A DNA stretch of 30,934 nt from positions 1-30,934 of IMG/VR virus record IMGVR_UViG_3300025270_000050; one strand, written 5' to 3'. Both the position numbers and the translations under genes were made by a program. This DNA is from a virus (taxonomy: Duplodnaviria; Caudoviricetes). The notes under the pieces were generated by a model. The model did not search any database. It was not told the DNA's origin and was given only the letters and a program-made list of their open reading frames with translations. Positions 3,625 through 30,432 of the stretch are shown in pieces; position 1 is the stretch's first letter; each line of letters starts with the position of its first letter.

Positions 3625-3683
3625 ACAAAGTTCTCTTCTCGGCGCATGGCGGCGGTGGGCAAGGACGGGCAAAATGAACGCGA

Positions 3684-14314: not shown

Positions 14315-14646
14315 CACTGAGACTCTCACGCGATGACTACCTCGACTCAACCGATCAGGAGCTCCGCTCAATGGCGGAGGCTTTCGCCCGGATCGAGGAA
14401 AGGACTGACCGCCGCCTTGCGAACTTCATGGCCCTCTTTGCCAATGCTAACTCAGGGAAGGGAAGGAGCTTCAAGGCCGAAGACTTCATGCCAGCCAGGG
14501 CGAGGCCGAAGCAGGTTCTCAACGAGAAGGAGATCTTCGAACGGTTCGACGCAATCTTCGCGAACTCGGAAACAGTAACAGAAGAAAGGAACAAAGATGG
14601 CGGCAACGACAATGGGCAAGTTAGTGATGGTTCTGTCCTCCAATGA
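14266..14646 (+). CDS. gpT-like extension of the chaperone reached by -1 frameshift
   Basis: The -1 frame is open from the slippery site: GKAEADALEEYAFARIALRLSRDDYLDSTDQELRSMAEAF...FKAEDFMP. Confidence 0.85.
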   Translation, partial: GKAEADALEEYAFARIALRLSRDDYLDSTDQELRSMAEAFARIEERTDRRLANFMALFANANSGKGRSFKAEDFMPARARPKQVLNEKEIFERFDAIFANSETVTEERNKDGGNDNGQVSDGSVLQ

Positions 14647-16816
14647 CTCGCAGTTTCGGAAGGGTATGAAGTCGACCCTCGCTCATGCGGAACGGTCGAT
14701 GAAGCGGGCCAGCGCACGCTTCGGACGGATGGGTCGCCAGATGTCGATGTCCCTGACCGCGCCTCTCGTCCTGATGGGAGTGGCTTCGGTGAAGGCGTTC
14801 GCTGTGCAGGAGAAGGCCGAGAAGAAACTCCACGCCGCACTGAAGGCATCCGGCCAGGAAGCCGAAAAGAATCTCGCCCTGTTCAAGAAGCAAGCCTCCG
14901 CGATCCAGAACGTCACGACAGTCGGCGATGAGATGTCACTCTCCCTCGCCGCCACCGCGACCGCGATGGGAATCCAAGCGCACCAACTCGACGCCGTCAT
15001 CAAGGGAGCGATCGGACTGTCGAAGGCATTCGAGATGGATCTTAACACATCGATCAAAGCCGCGGCGGCGTCATTGCAAGGAAAGACCGAACTGCTGACC
15101 CGCTACATTCCGACGCTCTCGCAAGTCGAGGGGGAGGCAAACAAGGTCGCGTTCGTGATGGACAAGATGGCCCAAGGGTTCGCAGTCGCGAAGGCGGAGG
15201 CGAAGACGACCGAAGGCCGATTGATACAGATGAAGAACAGCATGGGAGATCTTATGGAGATGGTCGGCTCGCGACTCGCTCCCGCGATCACCCGGTTCGC
15301 CGAGAAGCTCCAAAGGATTTTTACTGTCCTCAACGCGGTCAATCCGGCGCTGATAGATATGGCCCTTCAGATGGCAATCATCCTCGCGCTTGCCGGTCCT
15401 TTGACCCTCGCGCTCAGTGGAATCTTCAAGGTCCTGTCCATGATTGCGGGAATGAGTTTGGTCAGTCTCGCGACATCAATTGCCGCGATCGCGATCGTTG
15501 TCGGGGGACTCACCGCCGCGTTCAAGGATACGAACTTGGAGATCTCGAAGACCGGGACGGCGGCGTCAAAATCGGCGAGTGTCCTGGGAACCGTCCTCGG
15601 GGTTGTCCTCGACGTTGTCCACGCGGTCCGGATCGGGTTCAACATCATGACCGCCGGAATTCTGGAAGGGATCAAGTTCATCGCGAAGGCGTGGACCGGG
15701 ATGGGCAACGCCATGCGAGATATGTGGTGGCAAGTCACAACGACGATCCGCTTCTTCATGACGAAACTGGTCAACTTTATGCGGACGAAAGTCTTCCCGA
15801 TGATCAACGAGGCGATCAAGCAGGCTTCGAAGATGGCGGCCTTCTTCAATCTATCCTCTCCGGGGGCAGGGTTCGCTCCGCTCCCCACCTCTCCCGTCAA
15901 GTTCGAGGGGACAACCCGACCAGAACCGCGGACCAATAATTTCGCCGAGGGTCTGCAAGCGGAAGCGGATCTTCGAGGAGAGCGCATTGGTGATCTGATG
16001 GCGTCCTGGCCGAGCGAGAAGATCAAGGCGCAACTGGATGAGCTAGGGACGAGCCTCGACGAGAACCTCGACCCCGACAAAGTGCAGCCCGCGGTCGATG
16101 CCGCCGATGGACTTGGCGACGTTCTCGGCGACGTCAAGACAGCCACCGACGCAGTCGGGAAAGCATCGGGGAAGATGGGTGACGACATTGAAGAGAATGC
16201 CGGCCGAGCGGTGAGAGCCTACCAAGGAGTCGCCGCCGCAATGGAGGACATCAAACTAGGCATCGGCGATGCGGCGAAGTCTCAGGAAACTCTTCGCGAG
16301 GCGTCGGAAAAATACGCCAACACCTTCTCCGATCGGATGGCGGATTTCCTGACCGGCGCATCGGATCAATTCAAGAGCTTCGGCGATGTCGCGAAGAGCG
16401 TGCTGCAAGACATCGCGAACGACATGGTGAGATCTGGCATCCGATCCCTGCTCGGCGCTCTGGTCGGCGGGCCGGGCGGAGGCGGTGGGGTTCTCGCTGC
16501 GATTGGCTCGGCGATCTTCGGAGGGGGGAGAGCGACGGGTGGCCGAGTCGCGGGACGGACCGCCTTCATGGTGGGAGAGCGTGGTCCCGAGCTCTTCGTT
16601 CCAGACGCCGCCGGATCGATCGTCCCGAACAGTCGACTCAACGCAACCGGGGAAGGCGGGCAAGCGACCTCGATCACGATCAATCAGAACTTCGAGAGCG
16701 GAATTGATGAGAGCCGGTTGGCGCAGGTCGCCCGCCAGATCAAGGAAGACACGACTGACGGCATCCTGGCCGCGATCCAAAGAGGAGGCGGCTTCCGAGC
16801 CGCAGTCCAAGCATGA
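14597..16816 (+). CDS. Tail tape measure protein
   Basis: 739 aa, Ala-rich helical; SMSLTAPLV, central hydrophobic segment, C-terminal GGRATGGRV...VGERGPELFVP. Confidence 0.95.
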   Translation: MAATTMGKLVMVLSSNDSQFRKGMKSTLAHAERSMKRASARFGRMGRQMSMSLTAPLVLMGVASVKAFAVQEKAEKKLHAALKASGQEAEKNLALFKKQASAIQNVTTVGDEMSLSLAATATAMGIQAHQLDAVIKGAIGLSKAFEMDLNTSIKAAAASLQGKTELLTRYIPTLSQVEGEANKVAFVMDKMAQGFAVAKAEAKTTEGRLIQMKNSMGDLMEMVGSRLAPAITRFAEKLQRIFTVLNAVNPALIDMALQMAIILALAGPLTLALSGIFKVLSMIAGMSLVSLATSIAAIAIVVGGLTAAFKDTNLEISKTGTAASKSASVLGTVLGVVLDVVHAVRIGFNIMTAGILEGIKFIAKAWTGMGNAMRDMWWQVTTTIRFFMTKLVNFMRTKVFPMINEAIKQASKMAAFFNLSSPGAGFAPLPTSPVKFEGTTRPEPRTNNFAEGLQAEADLRGERIGDLMASWPSEKIKAQLDELGTSLDENLDPDKVQPAVDAADGLGDVLGDVKTATDAVGKASGKMGDDIEENAGRAVRAYQGVAAAMEDIKLGIGDAAKSQETLREASEKYANTFSDRMADFLTGASDQFKSFGDVAKSVLQDIANDMVRSGIRSLLGALVGGPGGGGGVLAAIGSAIFGGGRATGGRVAGRTAFMVGERGPELFVPDAAGSIVPNSRLNATGEGGQATSITINQNFESGIDESRLAQVARQIKEDTTDGILAAIQRGGGFRAAVQA

Positions 16817-17382
16817 GCGAACGCAGTCTCACGACCGCGGTCAAGGATGCTGCGTCCTCGCAAGTGGTCGCCCCGTTCTTTGCGGTCAGTGCCGACTTCC
16901 CTTCCGGCATGGTCCGGATCTGGGCAGGAGTGGGAGAGCTAACTTTTGATTCGAATACCTACGAGGGAGTCGGGGAGTTCCTCGGAATCGAAGCAATCAC
17001 CGAGACGGTCGACGGGAGCGCGAATGGACTGGCTCTGAGCCTCTCCGGAATTCCCTCGGACATTCGCAATCCGATCATCGATGACAAGTACTCGGGACGG
17101 GAGGCGGAGGTCTTCATGGGATGCTTCGATCCGAACACGGGCGAGATCCTCGACGACCCGATCACGATCTTCAAGGGACATATGGACACCGACTTCCTGC
17201 GGGAGGACGGGAAGACTTCGACGATCACCCTCCGGGTCGAGAGCCGGATCGTTGACCTCCTGCGATCACGGGAACACCGCTACACCCTCGAAGGCCAGCA
17301 CACCCTCAAGGGAACCACGACCGACGACGGGCTGGAGTTCATGCCGACAATGCAGGAGACGCAGGTCAAGTGGGGACAATGA
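16813..17382 (+). CDS. Baseplate hub / minor tail protein (lambda gpL-like position)
   Basis: VRIWAGVGELTFDSNTYEGVGEFL, LSLSGIP, IFKGHMD, DDGLEF...VKWG. Confidence 0.75.
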   Translation: MSERSLTTAVKDAASSQVVAPFFAVSADFPSGMVRIWAGVGELTFDSNTYEGVGEFLGIEAITETVDGSANGLALSLSGIPSDIRNPIIDDKYSGREAEVFMGCFDPNTGEILDDPITIFKGHMDTDFLREDGKTSTITLRVESRIVDLLRSREHRYTLEGQHTLKGTTTDDGLEFMPTMQETQVKWGQ

Positions 17383-17828
17383 TAGCGCGGACCGACAACT
17401 GGGACAGCGACCTCTCGGCCTTCGTGGCCGAGCGTGCCAGGAGGCCGTTTGAGTGGGGAGTGAATGACTGCCTGACCTTTGCCTTCAAGGCAGTCGAAGC
17501 GATGACCGGGCAGGTGGTCTTGGAGGATCTCTTCAACCCACAATGCCCTGACGCGAAGAGAGCCGAGCGCTTCCTCCGAGCTCAAGGTGGACTCGAATCT
17601 CTCATGGAACGGATCGCAGGGATTGCCGGGTGGCGCGAAGCGGAGAACCCTCAACGCCAATGCAGCCGGGGGGACCTCGCTCTCTTTGACAATGACCGCC
17701 GTCTCTGCGTTGGGGTTGTCGGGATCGGTCGCGTGCTTTGTCCCGGCTCCTCCGGACTTGAGGCGGAGAGAATGGATTCAATCAAACGGGGGTGGCACTT
17801 GCCCTTCAACCGGGAGGAGCAAGCCTGA
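17379..17828 (+). CDS. NlpC/P60-like tail assembly protein (DUF6950-like)
   Basis: RPFEWGVNDC and RGDLAL motifs; lies between hub and tail tip; ATGA overlap. Confidence 0.75.
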   Translation: MIARTDNWDSDLSAFVAERARRPFEWGVNDCLTFAFKAVEAMTGQVVLEDLFNPQCPDAKRAERFLRAQGGLESLMERIAGIAGWREAENPQRQCSRGDLALFDNDRRLCVGVVGIGRVLCPGSSGLEAERMDSIKRGWHLPFNREEQA

Positions 17829-20374
17829 TGCCGCAGATCGTGGCCATCGTTGTTGGGATCGTGAAGGGTGTCGCCGCGGTGGTGGGCGCGATCTCCGCCG
17901 GGGTGGCCGCACTCGGCCCGATCGGAGCCGCTCTCTTCAAGCTCGGCGTCGGTCTGGTGATCAGTTCACTTCTTGCCCCGAAGCCGCCACGGGGAGCGCT
18001 TGCCCGGCGCAACTCAACTTTCGCAATTCGCCAGCCATCACCCTCCCGGCGCATTCCCTACGGTGTCACCCGGCTCGGCGGAATCTACTTCTATGCGGAG
18101 ACCACCGCTCCGGCTGGCTCGGATGACCTCACGCTTCTGACCCTCGTCTTCGGCATCGGCGACGGCCCGATCGAAGCGGTCGACAAGATGTACTTCGACT
18201 CCGAGGAAGTCTCCCTTGTCAGCACCGGGACAGATTCGAATGGGCGGGCGCTTTACGGGGCGACCTCCGGCACGACTTGGTTTCCTACCGGCGGAGCCCG
18301 GCTCGTGACCTGCAGTTTCTACACCGGCTCGGCAGGCCAACCAGCAGACGCGACTCTGGTGGCGGCGAGTGATTCGAAGTGGACCGCCACCCACACCCTC
18401 GACGGCATTGCCTATGCGCGAGTCACCCTCGCCTATGATGCGGAGGTCTTCAAACTCGGGGTGCCAAACATTTCCTTCGAGATCCGGGGCCGCAACGACA
18501 TCTACGATCCGCGGACCGCAAGCTCGGGATACTCTGCGAACACCGCCTTGTGCCTCTCCCACTATCTGACCACCGCGAAGACCGGCCCCAACGCAACCTA
18601 CGCCACCGAGATCGACGCCACAGCCTTGACCGCCGCGGCCAATGTCTGCGACGAGAGTGTCTCCCTCGATGCCGGGGGATCGGAGAGCCGCTACACTTCC
18701 AACGGCTTTGTTGATCTTGCCGAGAAGCCGGAGGGAATCATCAATGACTTCAAAACCGCAATGGCGGGATGGATGGTGTACTCGGGCGGGCGGTTCAAGG
18801 TCTACGCGGGAGCCTTCGAGACTCCCACCTTCACGATCGATGCGGATATGCTGGCGGGAGCGGTCACCATCCAGAACCGGACACCGAAGCGGGAGCGATT
18901 CAATCTTGTCAAGGGAGTGTATCAAGCGCCGGAGAACGTCTACCAGCCGACCGACTTTCCCTCGGTCACAAATGCCACCTATCAGACCGAGGACGGCGAG
19001 GAGATCGACCGCGACATGGAGCTCGTCTTCACCACCTCCCCGGCCACCGCTCAACGGATTGCCAAGATCGAGCTAGAGCGAAGCCGCCAGGAACTAGTTG
19101 TCTCACTAATTTGCAACCTTCGCTCCCTCCCGGCGGAAGCGGGAATGACGGTCTACGTCACACTCTCCCGCTATGAGTGGGACGCGAAAGCGTTCTTCGT
19201 TCAATCGAGTTCGATCGGGCTGCTCGACGACGGGACGGTCGGAGTCAGCCTCTCGCTTCGCGAGATCGCTTCCTCAGTCTATTCGTGGACACCCGCCACC
19301 GACGAGAAGGCCGTTGCAACCGCTCCGAGTTTGTCGGTGGGAGCGCCGAAGGTTGACACCATCACCGCCTCCCCGGATGGATCCTCGGCCTTTGGCGACG
19401 AAGACTTCCCCGTGCGCGTCGCGCTGGCGACCGACACCGCCGACGCCGCGATCCGGTGGAGCAAGTCCTTCAGCCCGACGAACAGTAGCGAGGGGAACCC
19501 CTACGACGACTCTCCCGCCGAGCGCCCGCTGCTTTCCGAGGGGGAGACGCTCTACGCCCGGGCCTTCAAGGAAGGCTACCAGGACAGCGACGCGCTGGAA
19601 GAAACCTACACCTCGACCAACAGCGCGAACAGCATCTCGGGAATGCACGGGCGCTTTCGATCCGACGTTGCCTCCACCTTGAATCTCTGGACCACCGGCG
19701 GCGTCGGGTCCTGGTATAATCAGGGCAATCAATACGACGCTGGATCCGGCACCGGCGGGCTCGACATCACGAACTCCAGCCTCTTCACCTATTCACCGCT
19801 CTTCAATCCCTCTAAGCTCGGGATCGACTTTGACGGGAGCAACGATCGGCTCTGGTCGAGAGACGGGACGAGAGGGGCGACGACTTATTTCTTCGGCTAC
19901 CGGATGCCGCCGGTCCCCTGCACCGTCGTGGTCGCCCTGACCAACACCGCGACCGTCACCTACGGGACCCTCTTCTCCTCGGTGCCGAACCCGGTCACCT
20001 CTGACTCGGTTGGGATCTACCGCTATTACGGGAACTGGCTGGCGTGGATGAAGGACGGCTCCTACAAGTACAGCAGCGGAGGCACGCCAGCCACCGCGAG
20101 CACCTTCGAGGTGGTGGCGGGAACCTTCTCGAACACCTCAAGGGGAGTGCGGGTCAACAAGACGAGCGACACTCCGGACACCAACTCGCTCGACGTCGAC
20201 ATCAGCGGACCGATCGGAATCGGGGCCGACGTTCAGAGCGTGACCGACACCTCGCTCGCCTCGGACTTTTGGGCCGGGACCGTGAACGAGGTCATGATCT
20301 TCGATAGCGTGCTATCTGACAGCGACATTGACGATCTGACCGACTACCTGACCGGGAAGTACAATCCCTCATGA
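17828..20374 (+). CDS. Tail tip / host-specificity protein (gpJ-like) with C-terminal Fn3-associated and LamG-like domains
   Basis: RRIPYG..RLGG, IYDPRT..YSANTALCL, AANVCDE, TAQRIAKIELERSR; C-terminal TLYARAFKEGY..SD and DFDGSND...GTVNEVMIFDSVLS. Confidence 0.88.
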   Translation: MPQIVAIVVGIVKGVAAVVGAISAGVAALGPIGAALFKLGVGLVISSLLAPKPPRGALARRNSTFAIRQPSPSRRIPYGVTRLGGIYFYAETTAPAGSDDLTLLTLVFGIGDGPIEAVDKMYFDSEEVSLVSTGTDSNGRALYGATSGTTWFPTGGARLVTCSFYTGSAGQPADATLVAASDSKWTATHTLDGIAYARVTLAYDAEVFKLGVPNISFEIRGRNDIYDPRTASSGYSANTALCLSHYLTTAKTGPNATYATEIDATALTAAANVCDESVSLDAGGSESRYTSNGFVDLAEKPEGIINDFKTAMAGWMVYSGGRFKVYAGAFETPTFTIDADMLAGAVTIQNRTPKRERFNLVKGVYQAPENVYQPTDFPSVTNATYQTEDGEEIDRDMELVFTTSPATAQRIAKIELERSRQELVVSLICNLRSLPAEAGMTVYVTLSRYEWDAKAFFVQSSSIGLLDDGTVGVSLSLREIASSVYSWTPATDEKAVATAPSLSVGAPKVDTITASPDGSSAFGDEDFPVRVALATDTADAAIRWSKSFSPTNSSEGNPYDDSPAERPLLSEGETLYARAFKEGYQDSDALEETYTSTNSANSISGMHGRFRSDVASTLNLWTTGGVGSWYNQGNQYDAGSGTGGLDITNSSLFTYSPLFNPSKLGIDFDGSNDRLWSRDGTRGATTYFFGYRMPPVPCTVVVALTNTATVTYGTLFSSVPNPVTSDSVGIYRYYGNWLAWMKDGSYKYSSGGTPATASTFEVVAGTFSNTSRGVRVNKTSDTPDTNSLDVDISGPIGIGADVQSVTDTSLASDFWAGTVNEVMIFDSVLSDSDIDDLTDYLTGKYNPS

Positions 20375-20529
20375 AGACACTACTGACAACCATAACGGCG
20401 CTCACCCTGGCCGGGTGCGCGAACCTTGAAACAATGACCCCGGAGGAGGCCACCCGCGGAGCCGAAGCGGCTCGGGCATGGCTGGAGGTGGTCGCGGAGG
20501 CGCGGACCATTATCACCGCCGACAAGTGA
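20371..20529 (+). CDS. Small lipoprotein (52 aa; not in ORF track)
   Basis: MKTLLTTITALTLAGC: signal peptide with LAGC lipobox; ATGA overlap with the tail-tip stop. Confidence 0.8.
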   Translation: MKTLLTTITALTLAGCANLETMTPEEATRGAEAARAWLEVVAEARTIITADK

Positions 20530-20531
20530 GC

Positions 20532-20621
20532 ATGAGTAAGGGAGAGAGAATCCTCTGGCTCCTCGTCGCGATCGGCTGGCTGGTTTGTCTCGCCGCCGCC
20601 TTCTGGCAATCGAATCTCTAA
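20532..20621 (+). CDS. 29-aa single-TM peptide (not in ORF track)
   Basis: MSKGERILWLLVAIGWLVCLAAAFWQSNL; fills the gap between the lipoprotein and the holin-like gene. Confidence 0.55.
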   Translation: MSKGERILWLLVAIGWLVCLAAAFWQSNL

Positions 20622-20631
20622 AAACAAAAAT

Positions 20632-20835
20632 ATGAAAACTAGTTGGAAAACCACCGTCGGCGGAATCTTGTGCGCCATCGGGACCGCCATCGTCGGCGCG
20701 AACGTGGCCCTCGATCTCGTCACCCCACCGCTCGTCCTCTGGGTCGGGTATCTCATGTCGGCTCTCGGCCCGGTCCTTCTCGGAGCGAGCGCGAGGGACG
20801 GAGACAAGAGCTCCCAGGACCACGGAATCCGTTGA
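20632..20835 (+). CDS. Holin-like two-TM protein
   Basis: MKTSWKTTVGG, two hydrophobic segments, charged C-terminus; end of the late operon. Confidence 0.6.
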   Translation: MKTSWKTTVGGILCAIGTAIVGANVALDLVTPPLVLWVGYLMSALGPVLLGASARDGDKSSQDHGIR

Positions 20836-20838
20836 GCG

Positions 20839-21090
20839 ATGCCAAGCGAAAGCAACGGCACAATGCCCGGCTGGATTATCAAGCACTGGCCGATCATCGC
20901 ACTCGCGGCGACGGGGCTGGCATGGGGAGCCCGGTTGGAGGAGCGGACGAGCACGCACCTCGCCCGACCGTATCACGACGGGATGCAGTCAAGCCGGGAT
21001 GACCTCATCCAGATCAAGGCCGAGCTCCGGTTTCTTCGCGAGGACATCCTCGAATTGAAGCAAAGCCTCGCGCCCGGCGGCGGCACTTAG
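20839..21090 (+). CDS. Membrane-anchored coiled-coil protein (lysis-associated candidate)
   Basis: N-terminal hydrophobic helix then heptad-like LIQIKAELRFLREDILELKQ; stop overlaps the convergent integrase stop. Confidence 0.6.
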   Translation: MPSESNGTMPGWIIKHWPIIALAATGLAWGARLEERTSTHLARPYHDGMQSSRDDLIQIKAELRFLREDILELKQSLAPGGGT

Positions 21091-22139
21091 AAGGCCACCT
21101 TCGCGGCCTGAGAATCGGAGTGGTGCTCGACGACGTGCGAGTAGACCTTCGAGAGAAGAGCTCCGCCGTCGCGGTGTCCCAGCCAGTTCGCCACGGTCGG
21201 CAAGTCGACCTTGGCTTGAATGCAACGGGTGGCGAAGAGGTGCCGGAGATCGTGGTTCCGGAGATGAGGAAAGCCGAGGCGTTTGCAGGCGTTGCGTAAT
21301 CCAATCGTCGGGCGCTGGATCAGCATGACGGGATCGTTCGGTCCCTTCCCGCCCGGAGAATTCCGAAGCCTCTCAAGGAGCTCGGCCAAGGCCGGGTTGA
21401 TCGGGATCGATCTCGGGGTGTTGTTCTTGGTCGTGAAGTCTTCAGTGATGCGGACCTCGAGATGGCTCTCGGTAACCGCTCCCCACTTGAGATTGCGGGC
21501 TTCTGCTATGCGGAGCCCGCTATAGGCCAGGAGCTCAACCGCGTCGGCGGTGGCGTCATTGAAACGCCAATTCGAGTTTCCTCTGATCTCGGCAACGAGC
21601 TTGGCGAACTCCTCGGGAGCCGGGAGCCACTTGTGAGAGTTGACGATCTTCAGCCTCTTGATCTTGGCGACCGGGGTGGACCGCATGAGTCCCGCCTCGA
21701 CGGCCCGGTCGAAGACTTTATTGAGAAGGGCGATGGTCGTATTGTTGCTGGAGGCGCTGTAGGATTTTGCCGCCGCCACCTGCCAGAGCCGGAGGTCCGC
21801 GGGACTGACTTGGTGCAACGGCTTGCGGAGAACTGCCGGAGGACAGAGCGCCGCGAACTGGCGGGAGCTCACGCCGTAGGAAAGGCGGGTTGATTTTGCG
21901 AGGGTCGGGTCCTCCTCCCCGGCGATCCGCTCGACCGCAGCGGAGAGCGTCTCTGCTGGCCCGGAGGTGGCCGGAGCGTCGCGGAGCTCTTCGAGTGTTA
22001 GCGGGAGGAGGGCGGCGGCTTCGGAGTAGCTCTTGGTATTGAGCGAGCGGGATTTGCGTCTAGACTCCACCCTGACGATTGCGTAATAAATCCCCGTGCG
22101 CTCATCGATGAACAGGTTGGGGAGTTTGGATCTCTTCAT
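21087..22139 (-). CDS. int: Tyrosine integrase
   Basis: Catalytic R (SGLRIAE), K (TKN), HDLRH, LGH, Y (KVYSH); start placed at ATG 22139 behind AAGGAG (the track uses 22193). Confidence 0.96.
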   Translation of the reverse strand: MKRSKLPNLFIDERTGIYYAIVRVESRRKSRSLNTKSYSEAAALLPLTLEELRDAPATSGPAETLSAAVERIAGEEDPTLAKSTRLSYGVSSRQFAALCPPAVLRKPLHQVSPADLRLWQVAAAKSYSASSNNTTIALLNKVFDRAVEAGLMRSTPVAKIKRLKIVNSHKWLPAPEEFAKLVAEIRGNSNWRFNDATADAVELLAYSGLRIAEARNLKWGAVTESHLEVRITEDFTTKNNTPRSIPINPALAELLERLRNSPGGKGPNDPVMLIQRPTIGLRNACKRLGFPHLRNHDLRHLFATRCIQAKVDLPTVANWLGHRDGGALLSKVYSHVVEHHSDSQAAKVAF

Positions 22140-22216
22140 GGCCGAACTCCTTTTCGGCTTTGTCTTCTCTCTGGTCGGGTTGGTTTGTTTCATAGCATTT
22201 CAGATTCGATCGGGGA

Positions 22217-22480
22217 GGAGGCTAGCGCAGGAGGCTAGCACAGCAAAGCAAAAAGGATGGAGGGACGTGCAAACCCTATTAAAATAGGGATCTCGGCAGG
22301 GTAGCTCAGGGGTAGAGCAAAGGACTCATAATTGTTTGGAGCCAAATTGCCGATCCTTTCGAAACGCTTCAAACCCTTGCAGCGAAAGAACAAGAACGCT
22401 TTCGCGTCGTCCTGGCCGTTCAAAAATAAGGGCTGAAAAACGGGGCCTTTGGGGGATAGGAGGCTAGCATGGAGGCTAGC
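22217..22480 (+). repeat. Four GGAGGCTAGC direct repeats in two pairs flanking the att core (candidate integrase arm-type sites)
   Basis: Exact copies at 22217-22226, 22230-22239, 22459-22468 and 22471-22480. Confidence 0.8.
22295..22332 (+). tRNA. 5' half of a CAT-anticodon tRNA (Met elongator or Ile2); fragment, probable attP identity block
   Basis: GGCAGGG TA GCTC AGGGGTA GAGC A AAGGA CT CAT AA T = acceptor 5' strand, D arm, anticodon 5' strand and loop; no T arm (GGTTC) follows; adjacent to the integrase. Confidence 0.88.
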
Positions 22481-22567
22481 GCACGCCCAAGCATACGCTC
22501 AAGCATACGCTCTAGCATACGCTCTAGCATACGCTCTAGCATACGCTCTAGCATACGCTAGCACACG
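22479..22567 (+). repeat. 12-bp tandem repeat (GCATACGCTCTA)n
   Basis: Four perfect units at 22503-22550, degenerate units at 22479, 22491 and 22551, and a partial unit at 22561. Confidence 0.95.
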
Positions 22568-22657
22568 AAGATCCCCACGACCTACGTGGGGACCCTCTCG
22601 ACACGTCCGGGGAACAGGTCGATCAAAGCCGATCAATTCGACACGACCGACCCGGCC

Positions 22658-22918
22658 CTAATCGCACCGCTGCTTTCCCTTCAAGGCCCCTTCCGCTTGC
22701 TCTTGCACTGGTCCGGTCTTCCCGGGCCCAAGCTCAGCGGACCACTGCGCTCCGTGCTCATCGCGGCGCAACGTGATGCAGAATTTCTGCGCGGCGTCGA
22801 TTCTTGCCAAGGTCTCGATGTATTCAGAGAACGTGCGGAACCCGAGTTGAGCCACCCTCTCCAACGCTCGCTTGTGGACCGCGTGGTCGATGCGGATGGT
22901 GGTGGTTCTCTTCTGCAA
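22658..22918 (-). CDS. Ribbon-helix-helix (Arc/CopG-like) regulator, candidate repressor
   Basis: KRTTTIRID strand followed by two helices (..FRTFSEYIETLAR); TTG start with GGAGGAGG RBS; divergent from the early operon. Confidence 0.7.
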   Translation of the reverse strand: MQKRTTTIRIDHAVHKRALERVAQLGFRTFSEYIETLARIDAAQKFCITLRRDEHGAQWSAELGPGKTGPVQEQAEGALKGKQRCD

Positions 22919-22959
22919 AAGTAGTCCCTCCTCCCGCGAGGTTGCGCCGGTGGTAGCCC

Positions 22960-23120
22960 CAAGCTCTCCGGGCTGTAAAGCAGTATTCTGTAAACATATT
23001 TAAGGCATCAATAGTGAATAGGCTGGGAGTAAGAATCTGCACTATTTAATCATTTCCGATTGCGTAACGGCGACATTCTGAATACGCCTGCGGAGCTATG
23101 CGCAAGGTGTGGAATTGGAG
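22960..23120. promoter_or_regulatory. AT-rich divergent promoter/operator region (genetic switch)
   Basis: Clear AT enrichment between the divergent RHH and xis-like genes; ATTCTGWAWAC at 22985 and 23075. Confidence 0.6.
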
Positions 23121-23125
23121 AAGCA

Positions 23126-23359
23126 ATGCCGAGGAGGAAGGTGGCTGTGGACGTTAGCTTTCAAACCCTCTCAGAGCTCAAGGGAGAACCCGCGACGGTC
23201 TCCCTGAGGCGCTTCGCGGAACTCTTCGGCAAGAACTACATCTGGGCCTACCGCCTCGCCAAGAGCGGCAAGCTCAAGATCATCACGGGATACGGTCCGG
23301 TGATGGTGCCGAAGACCGAGGTCCTCAGGATCATCAACGAGGCGAAGTTGAACCGATGA
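23126..23359 (+). CDS. Excisionase-like winged-HTH protein
   Basis: ATG 23126 after GGAG; VSLRRFAELFGKNYIWAYRLAKSGKLK...VMVPKTEVLR. Confidence 0.72.
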   Translation: MPRRKVAVDVSFQTLSELKGEPATVSLRRFAELFGKNYIWAYRLAKSGKLKIITGYGPVMVPKTEVLRIINEAKLNR

Positions 23360-23778
23360 TCGTGCGGACCAAAGTCATTGGCTGGGTCGTCCTGGCGGTC
23401 GCGTTCGCGCTCTGGCCACCGCTCATCGCAAGCTCCTTCGCGTACATGCCGCAACCGCTGGCCTGGCTGTCGGCGATGGCGCATGGCGCAACCTTCATAT
23501 TCGTCGGGCTTCTCGGGGTCTACCTTCTCATGCCCGAGCGGCGACCTTTTGATTCTCCTCTTCCTCCACTACCGGACTGGACGGAGGATGACCTCTTCCG
23601 GCACGCAAGACAGTCGGGGGAGGAAGGGGGGATTGTTTTTTCTCGGAACGAGAGAGGGAATGAAACGAAAGAGACGGGAGGCTCCGAGGGTACAGGGCGG
23701 AGCCTCCCGTCCACCACCTACACGACCGGGGGGACGGAGGAACTGACGGAGGGGAAGAGCGGTGAGCGAGGAGGCTAG
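23356..23778 (+). CDS. Hypothetical two-TM membrane protein
   Basis: ATGA overlap; two hydrophobic helices and a low-complexity tail. Confidence 0.6.
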   Translation: MIVRTKVIGWVVLAVAFALWPPLIASSFAYMPQPLAWLSAMAHGATFIFVGLLGVYLLMPERRPFDSPLPPLPDWTEDDLFRHARQSGEEGGIVFSRNERGNETKETGGSEGTGRSLPSTTYTTGGTEELTEGKSGERGG

Positions 23779-24142
23779 GAGGTTCAGTTTCGCGAAGGCG
23801 TATCCTTCCGACAAGTTGAGCGAGCCCGATCTCCTCGGGGACGACTGGACGGTGACGATCAAGGGGTGGCGCTACGCCGACAAGAACGACATCGGGAGGG
23901 ACGGCAAACCGATGGGGCCGGGAACCGTGCTCGCCTTCGAGGAGACTGAGAAAGAGCTCAAACTTCCCAAGCTCTCGCACGTCGTGATCACCCGGATCCA
24001 TGGGCCGGACCCGAACAAGTGGGTCGGGAAGCAAGTGATCCTTTTTCCCACCACCTGCCCCGCCTTCGGAGATCCGCGGACGCCGTGCATCCGGGTCCGC
24101 AAGATCGACCCCGCAACCGGGAAGCCGCCTGACCTCTTCTGA
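23762..24142 (+). CDS. Phage recombination-module protein (putative ssDNA-binding)
   Basis: WTVTIK..VLAF..L.L...HGPDPNKWVGKQVILF...IRVR pattern; precedes the exonuclease. Confidence 0.55.
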   Translation: MSEEARRFSFAKAYPSDKLSEPDLLGDDWTVTIKGWRYADKNDIGRDGKPMGPGTVLAFEETEKELKLPKLSHVVITRIHGPDPNKWVGKQVILFPTTCPAFGDPRTPCIRVRKIDPATGKPPDLF

Positions 24143-24144
24143 TC

Positions 24145-25029
24145 ATGATCAAAGACGGAATACACAACAAGATCTCGCCGCGTGAATATCACGCATGGGA
24201 ATTCGACCGAACGAAGGGACCGATCTCAACCTCGACGCTGAAGCGATACGTCGAGCAAGGGCCGGAGCGCTTCATCAACGGCGAGAAGAAGAAGGTCAAC
24301 GCAAGCATGGCGTGGGGTTCGCTCGTCGACCTCTTGCTTTTCACGCCGGAGCACTTCGATGGGGAGTTCGTCCTGAGCACTGACTGCGACGATCTCTCCT
24401 CCGACGGATCATTCAGAACCGCCGCGGCCAGGGAGTGGCGGGACGGCGTCCTGGGGGAAGGCCGGCGAATCGTCAAACCGGATGATCTGAGCCGCGGGCT
24501 CGAAGCGGTCAAGAAGCTCTCCGCCACCCCAGCCTCGGCCCGGCTCCTCGAAGGCTCGCAGTATCAGGTCGGGCTTGTCTTCACCAGTGAGCACGGCATC
24601 CCGGCGAAGGGCTTGGTCGACTGCCTCCCGGTCGGCGAAGATTGCATCGTCGATCTGAAGACCACCGGGGCGAACCTGCACGATGACTCCGAGCTTGAAA
24701 GGACGGTCGGGAAATTCCGCTACCATGTTCAAGCCGCCTTTTATCTCTACCTGTGGTCGAAGCTCAGTGACGAGCGGCGGCGGGAGTGGAAGATCATATG
24801 GCAATCCTCGGTCCCTCCCTTCGAGGTCCGAGTGGACAAGCTCGACAACCTGATGCTCGACGCCGGGCAGGAGTTCGTCCGCTACCATGTCCCGCGGATC
24901 GTCCGCGACATCAAGACCGACAGCTGGCGGAGCCCGTTCTCGGAAGGGGAAACAATTCTACGGATGCACAACCCGACCGTCTTCGCGGAGGAGGCTCTCA
25001 TGGAACGATTGACCGAGATGGAACTCTGA
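24145..25029 (+). CDS. PD-(D/E)XK exonuclease (RecE/DUF3799-like)
   Basis: EYHA, ISTSTLK, KGLVD, IVDLKTT, YHVQAAFY. Confidence 0.88.
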   Translation: MIKDGIHNKISPREYHAWEFDRTKGPISTSTLKRYVEQGPERFINGEKKKVNASMAWGSLVDLLLFTPEHFDGEFVLSTDCDDLSSDGSFRTAAAREWRDGVLGEGRRIVKPDDLSRGLEAVKKLSATPASARLLEGSQYQVGLVFTSEHGIPAKGLVDCLPVGEDCIVDLKTTGANLHDDSELERTVGKFRYHVQAAFYLYLWSKLSDERRREWKIIWQSSVPPFEVRVDKLDNLMLDAGQEFVRYHVPRIVRDIKTDSWRSPFSEGETILRMHNPTVFAEEALMERLTEMEL

Positions 25030-25343
25030 TGACCTACGCGAAAAGGACCGACGGCAACCAGAGCGAGATCATTGCAGAGCTCCGGGCCGTGCTCCCCGAG
25101 GCGAGCGTTCACCCGGCCTCCGCCGCGGGCGACGGCTTCCCTGATCTCGCCATCGGGCTCTGGGACGACAACTACTTGGTCGAGCTCAAGGGGCCGGGGG
25201 GAAAGCTCACCAAGGCACAAGAGAGGTGGCACGCTCGGTGGAAGGGCAACCGGGCGGTCTGCAAAACCACGGCGGAGGTCCTTGTGAGCATCCTTCGCCA
25301 ATCCCGAAAGAAATCTGCAGAACCAACGCGGAGGTCCTTGTGA
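25029..25343 (+). CDS. VRR-NUC-like nuclease / Holliday junction resolvase
   Basis: TGATG overlap; YAKRTDGNQSEI, GFPDL, LVELK, KLTKAQERW. Confidence 0.85.
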   Translation: MTYAKRTDGNQSEIIAELRAVLPEASVHPASAAGDGFPDLAIGLWDDNYLVELKGPGGKLTKAQERWHARWKGNRAVCKTTAEVLVSILRQSRKKSAEPTRRSL

Positions 25344-25370
25344 GCATCCTTCGCCAATCCCGAAAGAAAT
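25258..25370 (+). repeat. 56-bp tandem duplication (43-bp perfect core)
   Basis: 25272-25314 is identical to 25328-25370; three mismatches in the first 14 bp of the unit. Confidence 0.95.
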
Positions 25371-25611
25371 GAACGCCAGCCACGGAGAACTGCTCGGATG
25401 GATTCTGAGTCTCAGCGTGCTCACCGCCGTTCTTGCGGTGTTGCTCTTCCAGATCCGGCGGCGACCGTCGGCCGGGGACGCGATCCCGTGGCGGGAGATC
25501 GTGGCGGTCACCATCGCTCTCTCGATTCTGTTTCTGGTCGCCTTCCTCTTCCCCTTCGCGGCTCGGGTCCTCCTTCCCGATCCCGGCAATCCCTCCCTCC
25601 TCAACAGATGA
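25369..25611 (+). CDS. Hypothetical two-TM membrane protein
   Basis: Two long hydrophobic helices; part of a chain of overlapping ORFs. Confidence 0.65.
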   Translation: MNASHGELLGWILSLSVLTAVLAVLLFQIRRRPSAGDAIPWREIVAVTIALSILFLVAFLFPFAARVLLPDPGNPSLLNR

Positions 25612-25835
25612 TCACTCCCGCACAACAATTGAAGAGACTAGAAGTCGCAAAGGTGCTTTGCCTCTTGGATGGGGAAGACCTCATCCTCCTCTCGGAAGCA
25701 CTCCGCCACTACTACGAACACAACGACGGGAAGGTCCGCGAAGAAGAACAGCGCCTGCTCTGCGAGATGAGCGCCGGAGTTCAGCTAGCGCAGGTCCGCC
25801 AATGGAGGGACCGCCTCACCGGGGAGAACGGATGA
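25608..25835 (+). CDS. Hypothetical protein
   Basis: ATGA overlaps at both ends; MITPAQQLKRLEVAKVLC... Confidence 0.6.
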   Translation: MITPAQQLKRLEVAKVLCLLDGEDLILLSEALRHYYEHNDGKVREEEQRLLCEMSAGVQLAQVRQWRDRLTGENG

Positions 25836-26176
25836 CAGCCGAAGAAGACAGCACCCTCTTCGACTATGCGAGGCGGCGTCGCGAGCAAGGCTCGGCCCAT
25901 GCCCGAAACTCCGACCCCGGAACTTCACATCAGGCTGCGGCTCATGTCACCAAGACGACGCTCAAACCAAGCCAACGGGACGTCCTCGAAGTCCTGCAAG
26001 CGGGTCCCAGGACACAATATTCTCTAGAGAGAGGACGGCTTCAAAGCCTCTACTCACCGTCCAGAATTCGAACCGCTGTCGCCGAGCTAACCGGGCTGAA
26101 TAAGGTGAGGGACACAGGGGAGAAGAAGAGGCTCCCGTCTGGACGCAATGCCATCATCTGGGAGGTGATCCGATGA
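25832..26176 (+). CDS. Phage winged-HTH-like protein
   Basis: ATG 25832; ARNSDPGTSHQAA...SRIRTAVAEL...DTGEKKRLPSGRNAIIW. Confidence 0.7.
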   Translation: MTAEEDSTLFDYARRRREQGSAHARNSDPGTSHQAAAHVTKTTLKPSQRDVLEVLQAGPRTQYSLERGRLQSLYSPSRIRTAVAELTGLNKVRDTGEKKRLPSGRNAIIWEVIR

Positions 26177-26880
26177 AGAAGCGCTTCACAGATTGCGACA
26201 AATGGCGCGACCCTTGGTTTCGTCGGCTCTCGCCACGGGCAAAGCTCGTTTGGCTTTGGCTGGTCGACAATTGCGACACCGCGGGAGTGATCGACGTGGA
26301 CTTTGAGCTCGCCGCTTTCCAGATCGGAAGCGACCTCGAACCCGACTACCTCTGCGAGCTCCAAGACAGAGTCGAGAAGCTGCCCAACGGTAAATACTGG
26401 ATCGGAAAGTTCATTTATTTCCAGTACTCAGTCGGCAACAATAAACACTTTTCGCCCAACTGTAAGCCGCACGCCCTTGTCTTGGAATTGCTCGAAAAAA
26501 ACGGCTTGACCGAAAGGGTAGCCGATACCCTTCCAAAAGGGTTAGGAAAGGGTCCAAGAAAAAGAAAAGGAAAAGGACAGGACAAAGCCTTTGCGGAGGG
26601 TATGCGCTCAAGGCCACCGACCCTCGAAGAGCTCAAGGCGTATGCCAAGGAAGTCCCCTGCAGCGAGGATTGCGCTGAGGGCTACCAGAATGACCGTCAG
26701 GCGCTTAACTGGACGAAAGTGAAGGGAGGGCTCCAAGTCACCATCGAGGACTGGAGGAGCGATCTGAGGACCTTTGCGATGCACTGGCGGGCGAACGAGG
26801 CGAAGAGGAAGGCCGAGGGACGCTCCGCACCGGTGGCCCGGGGAGTGGACACACGACCAGAGAAAAGACTGAAGTTATGA
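26173..26880 (+). CDS. Replication initiator-like protein
   Basis: KRFTDCDKWRDPWFRRLSPRAKLVWLWLVDNCDTAG N-terminal domain, basic linker, PPTLEEL C-terminal domain. Confidence 0.72.
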   Translation: MKKRFTDCDKWRDPWFRRLSPRAKLVWLWLVDNCDTAGVIDVDFELAAFQIGSDLEPDYLCELQDRVEKLPNGKYWIGKFIYFQYSVGNNKHFSPNCKPHALVLELLEKNGLTERVADTLPKGLGKGPRKRKGKGQDKAFAEGMRSRPPTLEELKAYAKEVPCSEDCAEGYQNDRQALNWTKVKGGLQVTIEDWRSDLRTFAMHWRANEAKRKAEGRSAPVARGVDTRPEKRLKL

Positions 26881-27284
26881 GTAGATTGACTGACGAGGAG
26901 GTAGCCAGCATGGTCACGACCAAGATCACAAGCGCGATGGCGTGCTTCGATGAAGGCCGGAGGAGCCCGGACAAGGCTGCGCTATTGCTCGAGGAGTTGA
27001 GACGGCGAGGATCGTTCTCGGAGAGTTGTGATTGGCTGAAGAATGCCGACACCCAGATCCACCGGGCGGTCATGATGGTCTTCGAGCATCACGCCGGGAA
27101 CCAAGACGCCTGCGCCCGGACATGGAGACTGGTTCTCGGGAACCTCCACAGCTTCGCCGAGCAGAAGGGAGAGTGGCGGCTTCTGGATCGCGAGAAGTCA
27201 GCCGCCTTTTTGGGAGAGGTCAGGAGCTCCATGCGAGCGAAGGAAAAACAGAGCCGATGCAACCAGCAGTCAGAAGCGCCCTGA
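26877..27284 (+). CDS. Hypothetical protein (position of a replication partner)
   Basis: ATGA overlap with the initiator gene. Confidence 0.6.
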   Translation: MSRLTDEEVASMVTTKITSAMACFDEGRRSPDKAALLLEELRRRGSFSESCDWLKNADTQIHRAVMMVFEHHAGNQDACARTWRLVLGNLHSFAEQKGEWRLLDREKSAAFLGEVRSSMRAKEKQSRCNQQSEAP

Positions 27285-27481
27285 GCGCGTCGGTCAGTGC
27301 GGGCTGTGCCGAGTTCTGGAGAGAGCGAGGGGAGGACCCCGGGATCACTTTCGGAGACATCGTCCGCGCCGGGGCAGCTGAAGGGAAGCGAAAGAAAAGA
27401 ACTTCCCGCGCCGTCCTCCTGGCCGACCGAATAGCGCGGGAGCTTGAGCAGGGGTGGAAGGACGAAAAGGGTGATTTTTGA
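27257..27481 (+). CDS. Hypothetical protein
   Basis: ATG 27257; fills the gap up to the next gene. Confidence 0.45.
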   Translation: MQPAVRSALSASVSAGCAEFWRERGEDPGITFGDIVRAGAAEGKRKKRTSRAVLLADRIARELEQGWKDEKGDF

Positions 27482-27484
27482 ATC

Positions 27485-28489
27485 ATGGACAAAATAGAAA
27501 TACCGACAAGGGAAGAAGCGGCGGGGATCGTTGCGACAGCATCGAGCCAACTCGAATGGCTCCTCGGGACCGAGCCGAACAGTGAGGCGATCGACTGGGT
27601 CGCAGTCTTTGAGCGAGCGCAGGCGACGCTCAACCTCTCGGGCTCCGGGCAAAGGGGTGGCACCATTGTCCTGCGGGACTGGTACCCTGTAGACCGGACC
27701 CTGCTGCTTGATTCCCATGTTGAATTGGCTGGCGATTTCAGGGCCAAGCATCACCTCGGGTCGAGTCCCGGGTTCCGGGCCGAGGAAGACTTCGCGGGTG
27801 AGTTCGTGCTCGTCTGGAAGTCGCCTAACACGCGGTCCCTCTATTCGAATTTCGGTGCCGGGTGCCGGGGGATTCATGTCCAGACCCGCCCTGGCCGCGG
27901 TGGAGTGTCCTTCCGCGGAGCGCAGCAAAGCGCCGGGATCGACAACCTAGTGATTCGTGGCTTTGGAGAGAACGGGACCGGGTTGAAGCTCGGCGGCGAC
28001 ACCTACTCGGTGCGCGATGTCTTCATCGATGCCACCATCGGGGGAGAGGGCTCCGCCGCCAGGAAGGGAGCGGTCGGGCTCCTGACCAGTGAGAGAACTC
28101 AGGGCTTGTTGGTCGAGAACCTCACGACCCACAACTGCGAGCTCGGGCTGAAGTTGACCGATCCCGTCGAGCTCATGATCCAGAGTCTCGAAACAGAACT
28201 GACCACTCTCCCGATCACCCTCGTCTACAACGCGATGGGAGTGACCTTTCGCAATGTGCAAGTCAGACATACCGGGAACATTTTGCACATCGAAGGAGCG
28301 CGGTGGCCGGACGACTTTCTGGTAAAAGTGGACGGGATGATGGTAGGAGACGAGCGAAGCGGAACAGTTCTATTGCCGGGCGGCATCATCTGGCCGACAC
28401 CCGACAAGACATTCGATCTTGCGATCCAAGGTACCCGGAGCGGAGTCGGGGTCATCGACCTGAAGGCGGACCGCTCCGAGCTCGAGTGA
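27485..28489 (+). CDS. Right-handed beta-helix (pectate lyase-like) protein
   Basis: FERAQ...GGTIVL..WYPVDRTLLLDSHVELAG, then repeating beta rungs (IDNLVIRGF, VRDVFID, VENLTTHNC, FRNVQV). Confidence 0.65.
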   Translation: MDKIEIPTREEAAGIVATASSQLEWLLGTEPNSEAIDWVAVFERAQATLNLSGSGQRGGTIVLRDWYPVDRTLLLDSHVELAGDFRAKHHLGSSPGFRAEEDFAGEFVLVWKSPNTRSLYSNFGAGCRGIHVQTRPGRGGVSFRGAQQSAGIDNLVIRGFGENGTGLKLGGDTYSVRDVFIDATIGGEGSAARKGAVGLLTSERTQGLLVENLTTHNCELGLKLTDPVELMIQSLETELTTLPITLVYNAMGVTFRNVQVRHTGNILHIEGARWPDDFLVKVDGMMVGDERSGTVLLPGGIIWPTPDKTFDLAIQGTRSGVGVIDLKADRSELE

Positions 28490-28794
28490 TGTTCTTTCCG
28501 AAAGCGGTCACTGTCGCGGGTGTCAAGATCAGGGTGGTCCGGCTCAGTCTCTCCGAGGATGATTGCTTCGGGTCCTGGTCCCACGACACGAAGACGATCA
28601 CGATCGACTCATCAATCACGGGCGATCTCCTCGTGGGCACCCTTCGCCATGAGATGCTCGAAGCGGCGTTCTCCCTCAGTGGGATCGCTTGGTGCGAGGG
28701 GAGTGTTTCCGAGACAACGGAGGGAATCATTCGTTGCCTTGATGAGATATTTTTTCCGGTCTGGGATCCGCTCTTCGAGCGCCTGAAATCCTGA
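28489..28794 (+). CDS. Small zincin-like protein with variant HExxE motif
   Basis: TGATG overlap; CFGSW...TITID...TLRHEMLEA. Confidence 0.6.
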   Translation: MFFPKAVTVAGVKIRVVRLSLSEDDCFGSWSHDTKTITIDSSITGDLLVGTLRHEMLEAAFSLSGIAWCEGSVSETTEGIIRCLDEIFFPVWDPLFERLKS

Positions 28795-28829
28795 CGCGGT
28801 GCCTGTTCTTCGGCGGCTACACGCTGGAG

Positions 28830-29750
28830 ATGAATCCGAAATTTACCCTTACCAAACGCCACAACGTGCCGGTGATTGAGTTCACCGAGCGCGTGAAGGT
28901 TGGAGACACCGTGACGATCTTGGCGCAAGCCGATGAGCACTGGGACAACGTCCACACCAATCAGGAGTTGATTGCAATCCACATGCAGGAGGCGGTCGAT
29001 CTCGGCTGGCCAATCATAAAGCTTGGAGATCAGTTGTGTCTCATGCAGGGCAAGACAGACGGTCGTGCATCGAAGGCCGACCTCCGCCCGGAGCATAAAA
29101 CCGGAAACTACATCGACGCGGTCGTCAACGGTTACGCGAAGTTTTGCGAGTTCGCCGCTCCCAACATCGCCTTGATCGCGGAGGGGAATCATGAGGCCGC
29201 GGTCCGGTCGAGGATGGAGACCAACGTCGTCGAGAGAGTTGCGGAGCGTTGGCGGGTGGCCGGGTCCTCAGTTCACGCCGGGGGAATTGGTGGCTGGCTC
29301 CTCGTCCGGCTCAAGATCACCAGCACTCAGAGGATACTCGTTCCGATCTTCTATCATCATGGCCACGGCGGCGGCGGGCTCTCCCGGGGAATCCAGCACG
29401 TCAACAAGCGAGCGCTCTACCTTCCCGACGCTCAGGTCATCATCAGTGGACACGTCCATGAGGAGTACACGATGACGCTCTGCCGCGACCGGATCAATCT
29501 CCATACCGGGCGGACCTTCGCCGATGAGCAAATCGCAGTCTGCACCGCTACCTACAAGGACGAATATGATCCGGAGGGGAGCAGTTGGCACAGTTTACAG
29601 GGAAGGCCACCGAAGCCCATCGGCGCGTCCTGGCTGGAGCTCAGCCTCCGGCGCGAGTTCGATGACCGTCTCGCTCCTCCTAGGAAGGGAAAAGAAAAAC
29701 AGAAGCTCCCGCGGTTCTATGTTACCGTCAACGTCAGGAGGGCAAAGTGA
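28830..29750 (+). CDS. Calcineurin-like metallophosphoesterase
   Basis: DEH, LGD, GNHE, HHGHGG and SGHVH metal-binding motifs. Confidence 0.88.
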   Translation: MNPKFTLTKRHNVPVIEFTERVKVGDTVTILAQADEHWDNVHTNQELIAIHMQEAVDLGWPIIKLGDQLCLMQGKTDGRASKADLRPEHKTGNYIDAVVNGYAKFCEFAAPNIALIAEGNHEAAVRSRMETNVVERVAERWRVAGSSVHAGGIGGWLLVRLKITSTQRILVPIFYHHGHGGGGLSRGIQHVNKRALYLPDAQVIISGHVHEEYTMTLCRDRINLHTGRTFADEQIAVCTATYKDEYDPEGSSWHSLQGRPPKPIGASWLELSLRREFDDRLAPPRKGKEKQKLPRFYVTVNVRRAK

Positions 29751-29756
29751 GGGCAG

Positions 29757-30014
29757 ATGATCACGGCGGAATTGGAGCACAGGCTCGTTAGGGGAGCGCA
29801 GATTCTCGAAGGGCTGGACGAAGCGATCGAAGGCACTTCGGATTGCGGTCGGCTCATCGACGGCTACGACAAGATGGTCGAAAGACTGAAGCAGAGAGAC
29901 GGGATGTCATACGCCGACGCGGTGGAATGGATTGACTACAACATCCTCGGCGGCAAGGTGGGCAACGGGTTCATCGTCATGCAAGCGATTACCGAGGAAG
30001 AAGGGACGGGATGA
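29757..30014 (+). CDS. Conserved-looking phage hypothetical protein
   Basis: LEGLDEAIEG...YDKMVE...DGMSYADAVEWIDYNILG. Confidence 0.7.
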   Translation: MITAELEHRLVRGAQILEGLDEAIEGTSDCGRLIDGYDKMVERLKQRDGMSYADAVEWIDYNILGGKVGNGFIVMQAITEEEGTG

Positions 30015-30430
30015 CCTACGGGGAATTCATCACCGGGCTTCGGCTGCGGCACTTCAACGCGGACGAGCTCACGGACTATGCCAACCGGACAAGGGGCGGG
30101 GTCCAGAACTCTCTTCCTCCTGCGGCCTTGTGGCCAAACATCGTGGTGCCTCTCTGGATTCTCGACTGTCTGCGGGAGAGCATCAAGCGCCCGATCACCA
30201 TCGTCAGTGCCTACCGAAGCCCACGCTACAACGCCCAATTGAATGGGGCCGCGTCCAACAGCCAGCACCGCCTCAACTGTGCGATCGACTTCAAGGTGGC
30301 AGGGATGAAGCCCGAGACAGCCTTCAATCGACTGCGGACGATGCGAGACGCCAAGGTGTTCGCGGGCGGTCTGGGACTCTACCCGACCTTCGTCCATATC
30401 GACAACCGCGGAAGGTGCGCGACTTGGTAG
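30011..30430 (+). CDS. Peptidase M15A (Zn D-Ala-D-Ala peptidase fold), probable endolysin
   Basis: SAYRS..YN, SQH....AID, GGLGLY.TFVHIDNRG. Confidence 0.88.
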   Translation: MTYGEFITGLRLRHFNADELTDYANRTRGGVQNSLPPAALWPNIVVPLWILDCLRESIKRPITIVSAYRSPRYNAQLNGAASNSQHRLNCAIDFKVAGMKPETAFNRLRTMRDAKVFAGGLGLYPTFVHIDNRGRCATW

Positions 30431-30432
30431 TG

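Follow-up and report, generated by a model that had tools for sequence, protein, structure and literature searches.

A marine siphophage attP carrying the 5' half of a Roseibacillus-type tRNA-Met would rebuild the gene beside int, probably under a weak phage promoter

Integration of an element that carries the 5' part of a tRNA gene is already known in principle and is uncommon. The available text of PMC8092301 describes this 5'-type arrangement at a tRNA-Met gene for the MabA1 prophages of M. abscessus at attB-5. In the Islander survey, 159 of 3919 islands (4%) from a 2012 genome set have 5' fragments (PMC4383910, sections available). Conventional 3'-half attP sites, as outlined in the accessible part of PMC10865867, have a core of 30 to 45 bp, and the intact tRNA gene adjoins int after integration. 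The same part of that paper describes tRNA-dependent lysogeny by phage Fionnbharth and its relatives, in which integration through a core of ~10 bp destroys the host gene, for which a complete phage tRNA substitutes. More 5'-type cases may be present in the supplements of PMC8092301 or in the Islander or TIGER databases.

The window analyzed here is an entire 30.9-kb viral contig (30,934 nucleotides) from an uncultured marine siphophage that we assign to a Roseibacillus-type host. The phage is HK97-like, with terminase, portal, capsid, and tail genes in the left part of the contig and recombination and lysis genes in the right part. Its intact tyrosine integrase gene (int, positions 21,087 to 22,193, minus strand; 368 amino acids; PF00589, E = 6e-17; phrog_1) points away from the attP site, and the catalytic R-K-H-R-H-Y residues (R228, K256, H314, R317, H340, and Y351) are invariant among 20 homologues. 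The attP gap upstream of int has phage genes on either side, as expected for a free attP. A small helix-turn-helix protein encoded at positions 23,060 to 23,359 (plus strand; PF12728, E = 7e-4, which is under the curated cutoff) has a 44%-identical homologue in the same place in locus L164 and is a candidate excisionase. A single-protein search among viral contigs found no relative, and no terminal repeat was found in the 30.9-kb contig, which is therefore possibly incomplete.

The core of the attP is a 37-nt block (22,295 to 22,331, plus strand) that exactly matches the 5' half of a host tRNA-Met(CAT) gene in 19 of the 20 genomes of the genus around G001, a Roseibacillus metagenome-assembled genome (MAG). 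A reversed control gave 0 matches, and the exact match in 19 of 20 genomes therefore excludes a chance origin of the tRNA half. The initial annotation had proposed an attP with the 5' half of a host CAT tRNA, running from G1 through the anticodon loop. This is borne out, as are the start at 22,295 and the stop at the loop, but the block is 37 nt long and ends at 22,331, rather than 38 nt and 22,332. Host identity stops at the last base of the loop CTCATAA (22,325 to 22,331, plus strand), which is the predicted 7-bp crossover region, and the distal fragments in relatives stop at tRNA nucleotides 37 to 40 at 13 of 15 loci. At empty host sites, the 37-mer opens an intact tRNA gene with a conserved host promoter with a C-rich tail in front of it, and the gene continues with GCCTT, not with the TCCTT that had been predicted. 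ARAGORN found no whole tRNA in the window, a contig that may be incomplete, and Rfam RF00005 scores 19.4 bits on it, below the threshold. A tRNA-like fold at 22,295 to 22,382, suggested by cmscan, was rejected; its fold z score is 0.16 relative to shuffles, and its acceptor-like complement is absent from two junctions of a related element (L243 and L245; see below).

The 37-mer is present once in 17 of the 19 matching genomes, twice in G012, and three times in G001. A relaxed pattern matches 142 of 151 order-level genomes and does so once in 140 of these; among the order-level matches listed, the exact 37-mer of the window is found in G001 only. The target is thus single copy, as the initial annotation had supposed, in 17 of 19 genomes of the genus and in 140 of the 142 order-level matches. 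Each genome has three CAT tRNA genes: the target (C3-G70), a separate G3-C70 gene, and fMet. The criteria in the available text of PMC1635315 assign C3-G70 to Met and G3 or C70 with C4-G69 and C5-G68 to Ile2. Judged by these identity elements, the target is the elongator tRNA-Met and the G3-C70 gene is tRNA-Ile2, which settles an earlier Met/Ile2 assignment in favor of Met and removes Ile2. A single-copy tRNA-Met gene is generally expected to be essential, and given its copy number, we regard the target as probably essential. The host tRNA-Met (L244 and L246 to L264) has an A31-G39 mismatch closing the anticodon stem and an acceptor stem that closes with G1-U72. In some Roseibacillus genomes (L246 to L264), the gene and its promoter are inverted relative to the same two flanking genes.

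Lambda-type attP sites have an IHF layout and pairs of arm-type repeats to the left and right of the core, and the window shares the paired repeats. Four exact copies of GGAGGCTAGC flank the core, two on the left (22,217 to 22,226 and 22,230 to 22,239, plus strand) and two on the right (22,459 to 22,468 and 22,471 to 22,480, plus strand), with no further exact copy in the window. These repeats, a feature absent from the initial annotation, are putative Int binding sites. One left copy is retained in the attR of L003 and L165, and repeats related to the right pair are present in L245, where arm-like repeats have undergone a separate expansion. The spacing of the right repeats is continued by an array of six 12-bp units (22,488 to 22,559, plus strand) whose copy number differs among strains; the region is 60 bp shorter in contigs of runs X15 and X24. 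The right attP arm (22,332 to 22,446, plus strand) is 77 to 78% identical to the DNA that follows the 5' half at the L243 and L245 junctions and, judging from this match, would come after the bare 5' half at the far junction. Within it, a consensus scan alone places a terminator-like hairpin (22,395 to 22,408, minus strand) that faces transcripts from the right. The right arms of the window, L245, and L164 share a TTGC motif with CAAACY 17 nt farther on (22,346 to 22,374 in the window), a possible weak rightward promoter or protein site. The tRNA half is flanked by CAAAGGA and TTGTTTG, which had been taken as the inverted repeats of an integrase core site. These letters are present, but the right heptamer is not kept in the related attL junctions (TCGGATC and AAAATTC), which makes weak evidence of the 5/7 inverted repeat.

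Contigs of marine runs X1, X3, X6, X15, and X19 span the site without a break in the attP form, although the window itself may stem from runs X1 and X3. Runs X15 and X19 contain variant strains with 14 differences each from the window, none listed inside the tRNA half. In the 8 of 24 listed runs that were examined, no contig joins the tRNA half to host DNA as an attL or attR. Loose contig ends at 22,300 and 22,337 were rejected as junctions, as they belong to another tRNA-like contig with 3 differences.

Both types of junction are found in G001, which carries a 76%-identical integrase (L003, the best genome match of the integrase alignment). At its attR (L244, the same locus as L003), an intact tRNA gene adjoins int in divergent orientation and lies behind DNA that is 77% identical to window positions 22,003 to 22,331. 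At its attL-type junctions (L243 and L245), the host promoter and a bare 5' half run into DNA that is 77 to 78% identical to window positions 22,295 to 22,446. Upstream of the half, both attL-type junctions match the empty site L255 at 96% identity, and a gene that follows the intact tRNA in G001 is also downstream at the empty sites L253, L256, and L262. These junctions lie on separate MAG contigs and represent the element of a relative, not the window's own phage. Based on the attL and attR junctions, we conclude that the window consists here of a left arm, the 5' half, and a right arm and that integration would give the predicted layout. Two expectations of the initial annotation, an intact tRNA at the int-proximal junction of a related prophage and a host promoter separated from the rebuilt gene, are both observed in G001, where the promoter stays with the bare 5' half (L243 and L245).

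The two attL variants suggest that G001 contains mixed strains. The int region of G001 is joined directly to a piece 81% like window positions 3,325 to 3,692 (L003 11,519 to 11,887), so the element looks reduced and may be a deleted prophage or a satellite. Outside the int-att block, neither G001 nor G017 nor G020 yielded a prophage that closely matches window positions 14,000 to 30,934. A repeat of the final 19 nt of the tRNA lies ~180 bp downstream of the gene (L003 9,641 to 9,659), and similar 3' repeats are present in L005, L009, and L029.

The layout in G001, with the intact tRNA behind element DNA and a bare 5' fragment behind the host promoter, is that of MabA1. Because the MabA1 arrangement is stated in the available text of PMC8092301, the layout is less novel than the initial annotation implied. 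As far as that text goes, the MabA1 host is actinobacterial and the arrangement is an exception among tRNA sites, whereas in the Verrucomicrobiota group of the window it is the majority layout (among the best 240 integrase loci; see below). The A-site islands in the available text of PMC4383910 resemble the window in that the tRNA is split in the anticodon loop, an island-borne 5' fragment restores it, and int is on board. As in Fionnbharth, at least in the part of PMC10865867 available, an essential tRNA function would rely on phage DNA, and likely on a phage promoter, after integration, but here the core is 37 nt long, the host gene would be rebuilt (as is the intact tRNA at the G001 attR), and there is no whole tRNA in the window. 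The size of the core and the intact tRNA adjoining int are shared with conventional 3'-half sites as the same text presents them. Unlike in those sites, the core of the window reads the opposite way relative to int, and the host promoter would be lost, not kept.

The group-level comparison drew on 240 integrase loci, the best 80 in each of three collections with 567, 332, and 544 confirmed loci; the 240 are not independent of each other. An intact tRNA lies just upstream of int in 115 of these best 240 loci and is divergent in 102 and conventional in 13. The divergent share by source (best 80 each) is 60/65 for genomes, 39/47 for metagenomes, and 3/3 for viral contigs. The 102/115 int-proximal tRNAs among the best 240 loci compare with the 159/3919 islands in the available text of Islander, a comparison between different methods and samples. 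Eighteen anticodon classes are represented among the divergent loci of the best 240, with Ser(CGA) at 26 loci, Ile2 at 22, and Arg(TCT) at 12, while elongator Met accounts for only 3. Among the best 240, 57 divergent loci have at least 3 kb of sequence beyond int; 15 of these have a same-strand 5' fragment on the element side, and a 3' fragment or opposite-strand match on that side was found in none of the 57. A further subset of 31 loci (also among the best 240) has a good integrase match and room upstream but no intact proximal tRNA. Eleven of these have a divergent 5' half like that of the window, 7 have a 3' half in the conventional orientation, 8 have a 3' half alone, int-proximal on the divergent strand, 1 has a near-whole tRNA, and 4 have nothing.

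An Arg(CCT)-like tRNA 3' half alone, int-proximal and behind a conserved element motif, is seen in L040, L054, L071, L192, L199, L202, L210, and L211, ~90 to 110 nt upstream of int. The distal end of these elements was not found in the 8 loci, and the gene may be rebuilt at that end or nowhere. In L025 (17,630 to 17,740), L050 (7,471 to 7,580), and L046, the distal 5' fragment is preceded by arm-like DNA of another element or there are two fragments, suggesting tandem arrays of 5'-type elements.

On a midpoint-rooted FastTree phylogeny of 115 sequences with no outgroup, the conventional loci fall in several separate places, which indicates that orientation has switched more than once. The nearest relatives of the window keep the upstream arm and palindrome block and change the target, which is Met in the window and L003, Arg(TCT) in L163 and L165 (with the same layout), and Phe in L164, which has the corresponding 5' half in a free attP and shares the early genes; this is a clear case of target switching. 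The literature searched contains no report of a 5'-type layout dominating a Verrucomicrobiota integrase group. The available portions of PMC3861242, PMC5478533, PMC13626063, PMC9897764, and PMC9934374 do not describe 5'-type integration in Verrucomicrobiota.

Since integration would leave the host promoter more than 30 kb away, a sequence in element DNA would have to drive transcription of the rebuilt tRNA. The palindrome CCCTAT-TAAA-ATAGGG (22,274 to 22,289), similar to palindromes in L003, L163, L165, and L164, holds TAAAAT on the plus strand (22,280 to 22,285) and TATTTT on the minus strand (22,286 to 22,281), and from its sequence it is a candidate -10 element for the rebuilt tRNA or a candidate att-arm protein site. 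The initial annotation had pointed to TAAAAT as -10-like. Its position 9 nt before G1 is correct, but as a promoter it is doubtful; TGGAGG-16-TAAAAT has no usable -35 element, L163 and L165 have no T at the first position of the hexamer, and the group as a whole shows no promoter signal toward the tRNA. We give TAAAAT at 22,280 somewhat less than an even chance of being a working -10 element. A promoter scan found no consensus site in 21,900 to 23,200. A terminator-like hairpin at 22,140 to 22,159 (plus strand), from a consensus scan alone that found 2 hairpins versus 1.4 expected, would limit read-through from inside int and confine a local promoter to ~130 bp.

Promoter strength was scored against an approximate sigma-70 matrix, with base shuffles as the reference. 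Toward the tRNA, element DNA has a mean z of 0.0 (102 loci among the best 240; 14% above 1.5), versus 2.0 for native tRNA upstream regions (n = 39; 64% above 1.5), a nonindependent set of which one Met locus makes up about half. The site in the window (z of 2.1) and that in L003 (z of 1.6) are among the better element scores, while those in L163 and L165 are not. Toward int, the mean z is 1.9 (n = 101, among the best 240 loci), and the best site often overlaps the arm repeats. In the window, the best site in the int direction is the candidate int promoter TTGCTG-16-TAGCCT (22,219 to 22,246, minus strand), which overlaps the left arm repeats; the overlap of int promoters with arm-type repeats at about 100 loci suggests autorepression by Int. 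TAnnnT occurs 4 to 12 nt before G1 at 32 of 102 loci among the best 240, versus 26 ± 4 in shuffled sequence, with a peak at 8 to 10 nt; neither extended -10 motifs nor two-strand -10 motifs show enrichment at these loci. IHF-like sites with at most 1 mismatch from the IHF consensus are present at 31 of 102 loci among the best 240, versus 7% of shuffled sequences and 0 of 39 native regions, and occupy the same place before G1 as the -10-like hexamer. The left arm of the window is 3 mismatches from that consensus. The interval from the estimated int start to G1 has a median of 66 nt (among the best 240 loci), and the GC content of the last 25 nt before the tRNA is 0.55 in the host and 0.32 in the att arm. 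No mapped promoter for any 5'-type case was found in the literature searched.

We consider it probable that this locus is the attP of a Roseibacillus-type phage that rebuilds tRNA-Met beside int, where the gene is likely read from a weak phage promoter, and leaves the host promoter at the far end. The identity block, the target, its copy number, and both junction types in a relative are the observations that carry this explanation. Most likely, Int on the arm repeats recombines attP with attB through the 7-bp anticodon loop of each, although we infer both the point of crossover and the binding of Int to the repeats. The anticodon arm is nearly symmetric, so an attP could evolve to read in either direction, and the window most likely owes its orientation to descent within an integrase group where the 5' type is the norm. 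In this orientation, the element would have to bring a promoter as well as the 5' half. The rebuilt tRNA would be identical in sequence to that of the host while its regulation would change, as the C-rich promoter region of the host would be lost and A/T-rich att-arm DNA gained. We infer that a weak promoter somewhere in roughly 100 bp of att-arm DNA likely transcribes the gene, and the orphaned host promoter would transcribe the bare 5' half and continue into the phage's right arm. The phage promoter most likely serves just to keep the lysogen alive; phage control of translation is possible but improbable.

The promoter assignment has an alternative that we regard as unlikely, in which the rebuilt tRNA is transcribed from afar (from the host promoter across a small element, from int, or from the late region) and TAAAAT is part of a protein site. 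This would be consistent with the lack of a group-wide promoter signal near G1 and with elements of just 2.8 to 11 kb where both ends are in view, sizes that are biased by the 10-kb flank. In a phage of more than 30 kb, however, read-through would have to cross a repressed genome and run antisense through int, and the hairpin at 22,140 to 22,159 stands in its way.

Improbable, too, is the proposal that att-arm-bound Int, an excisionase, or an IHF-like factor, or else a -10 element shared with int, adjusts the output of tRNA-Met and thereby lets the prophage influence translation. The interval between int and G1 is short and is packed with arm repeats and IHF-like sites, and TAAAAT and TATTTT lie on opposite strands in the 18-bp start-site geometry given in the available text of PMC10268837. 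However, the reciprocal 18-bp geometry comes with any TAnnnT, the two-strand motif is found at 11 of 102 loci (among the best 240) versus 7.8 ± 2.4 expected, and the window's distance from the IHF consensus also argues against such tuning. Free switching among 18 target classes argues against selection for Met in particular. We hold the broader version of this idea to be equally improbable, namely, that the whole group puts essential single-copy tRNAs under a noncanonical promoter lying within an att arm bound by Int and IHF and that the recombination state sets tRNA supply, throttling translation on induction, possibly through a bidirectional -10 element shared with int and a nearly leaderless pre-tRNA.

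We likewise give little credence to the view that the layout serves to hold the prophage in place, as an essential tRNA would fall silent if the int-proximal end were lost. The single-copy target and the retention of the int-proximal end by the seemingly reduced G001 element would fit this view, but precise excision restores the host promoter and gene, so that only imprecise deletions are selected against, and conventional 3'-type elements are similarly protected at their tRNA end.

An origin of the half as a captured fragment or a degenerate phage tRNA gene, with no role in integration, is extremely improbable, since, even though marine phages carry CAT tRNAs with a similar D arm and anticodon arm (L001 and L002), exact host identity here ends at the loop, arm repeats flank the half, the matching attL and attR junctions in G001 contradict such an origin, and the attP RNA folds no better than shuffles (z of 0.16). 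A 21-nt pattern search of viral contigs returned just those 2 loci (L001 and L002), which are whole phage tRNAs in tRNA clusters and are unrelated to att sites.

The preferred reading, a tRNA-Met gene rebuilt beside int and served by a weak phage promoter, raises the question of how an essential tRNA is transcribed from ~70 to 100 bp of att-arm DNA without the usual -35 and -10 elements of the host. Integration vectors in this phylum would need a promoter along with the attP, and island finders would also be affected. A layout that has been treated as a rare exception is the default in a large integrase group.
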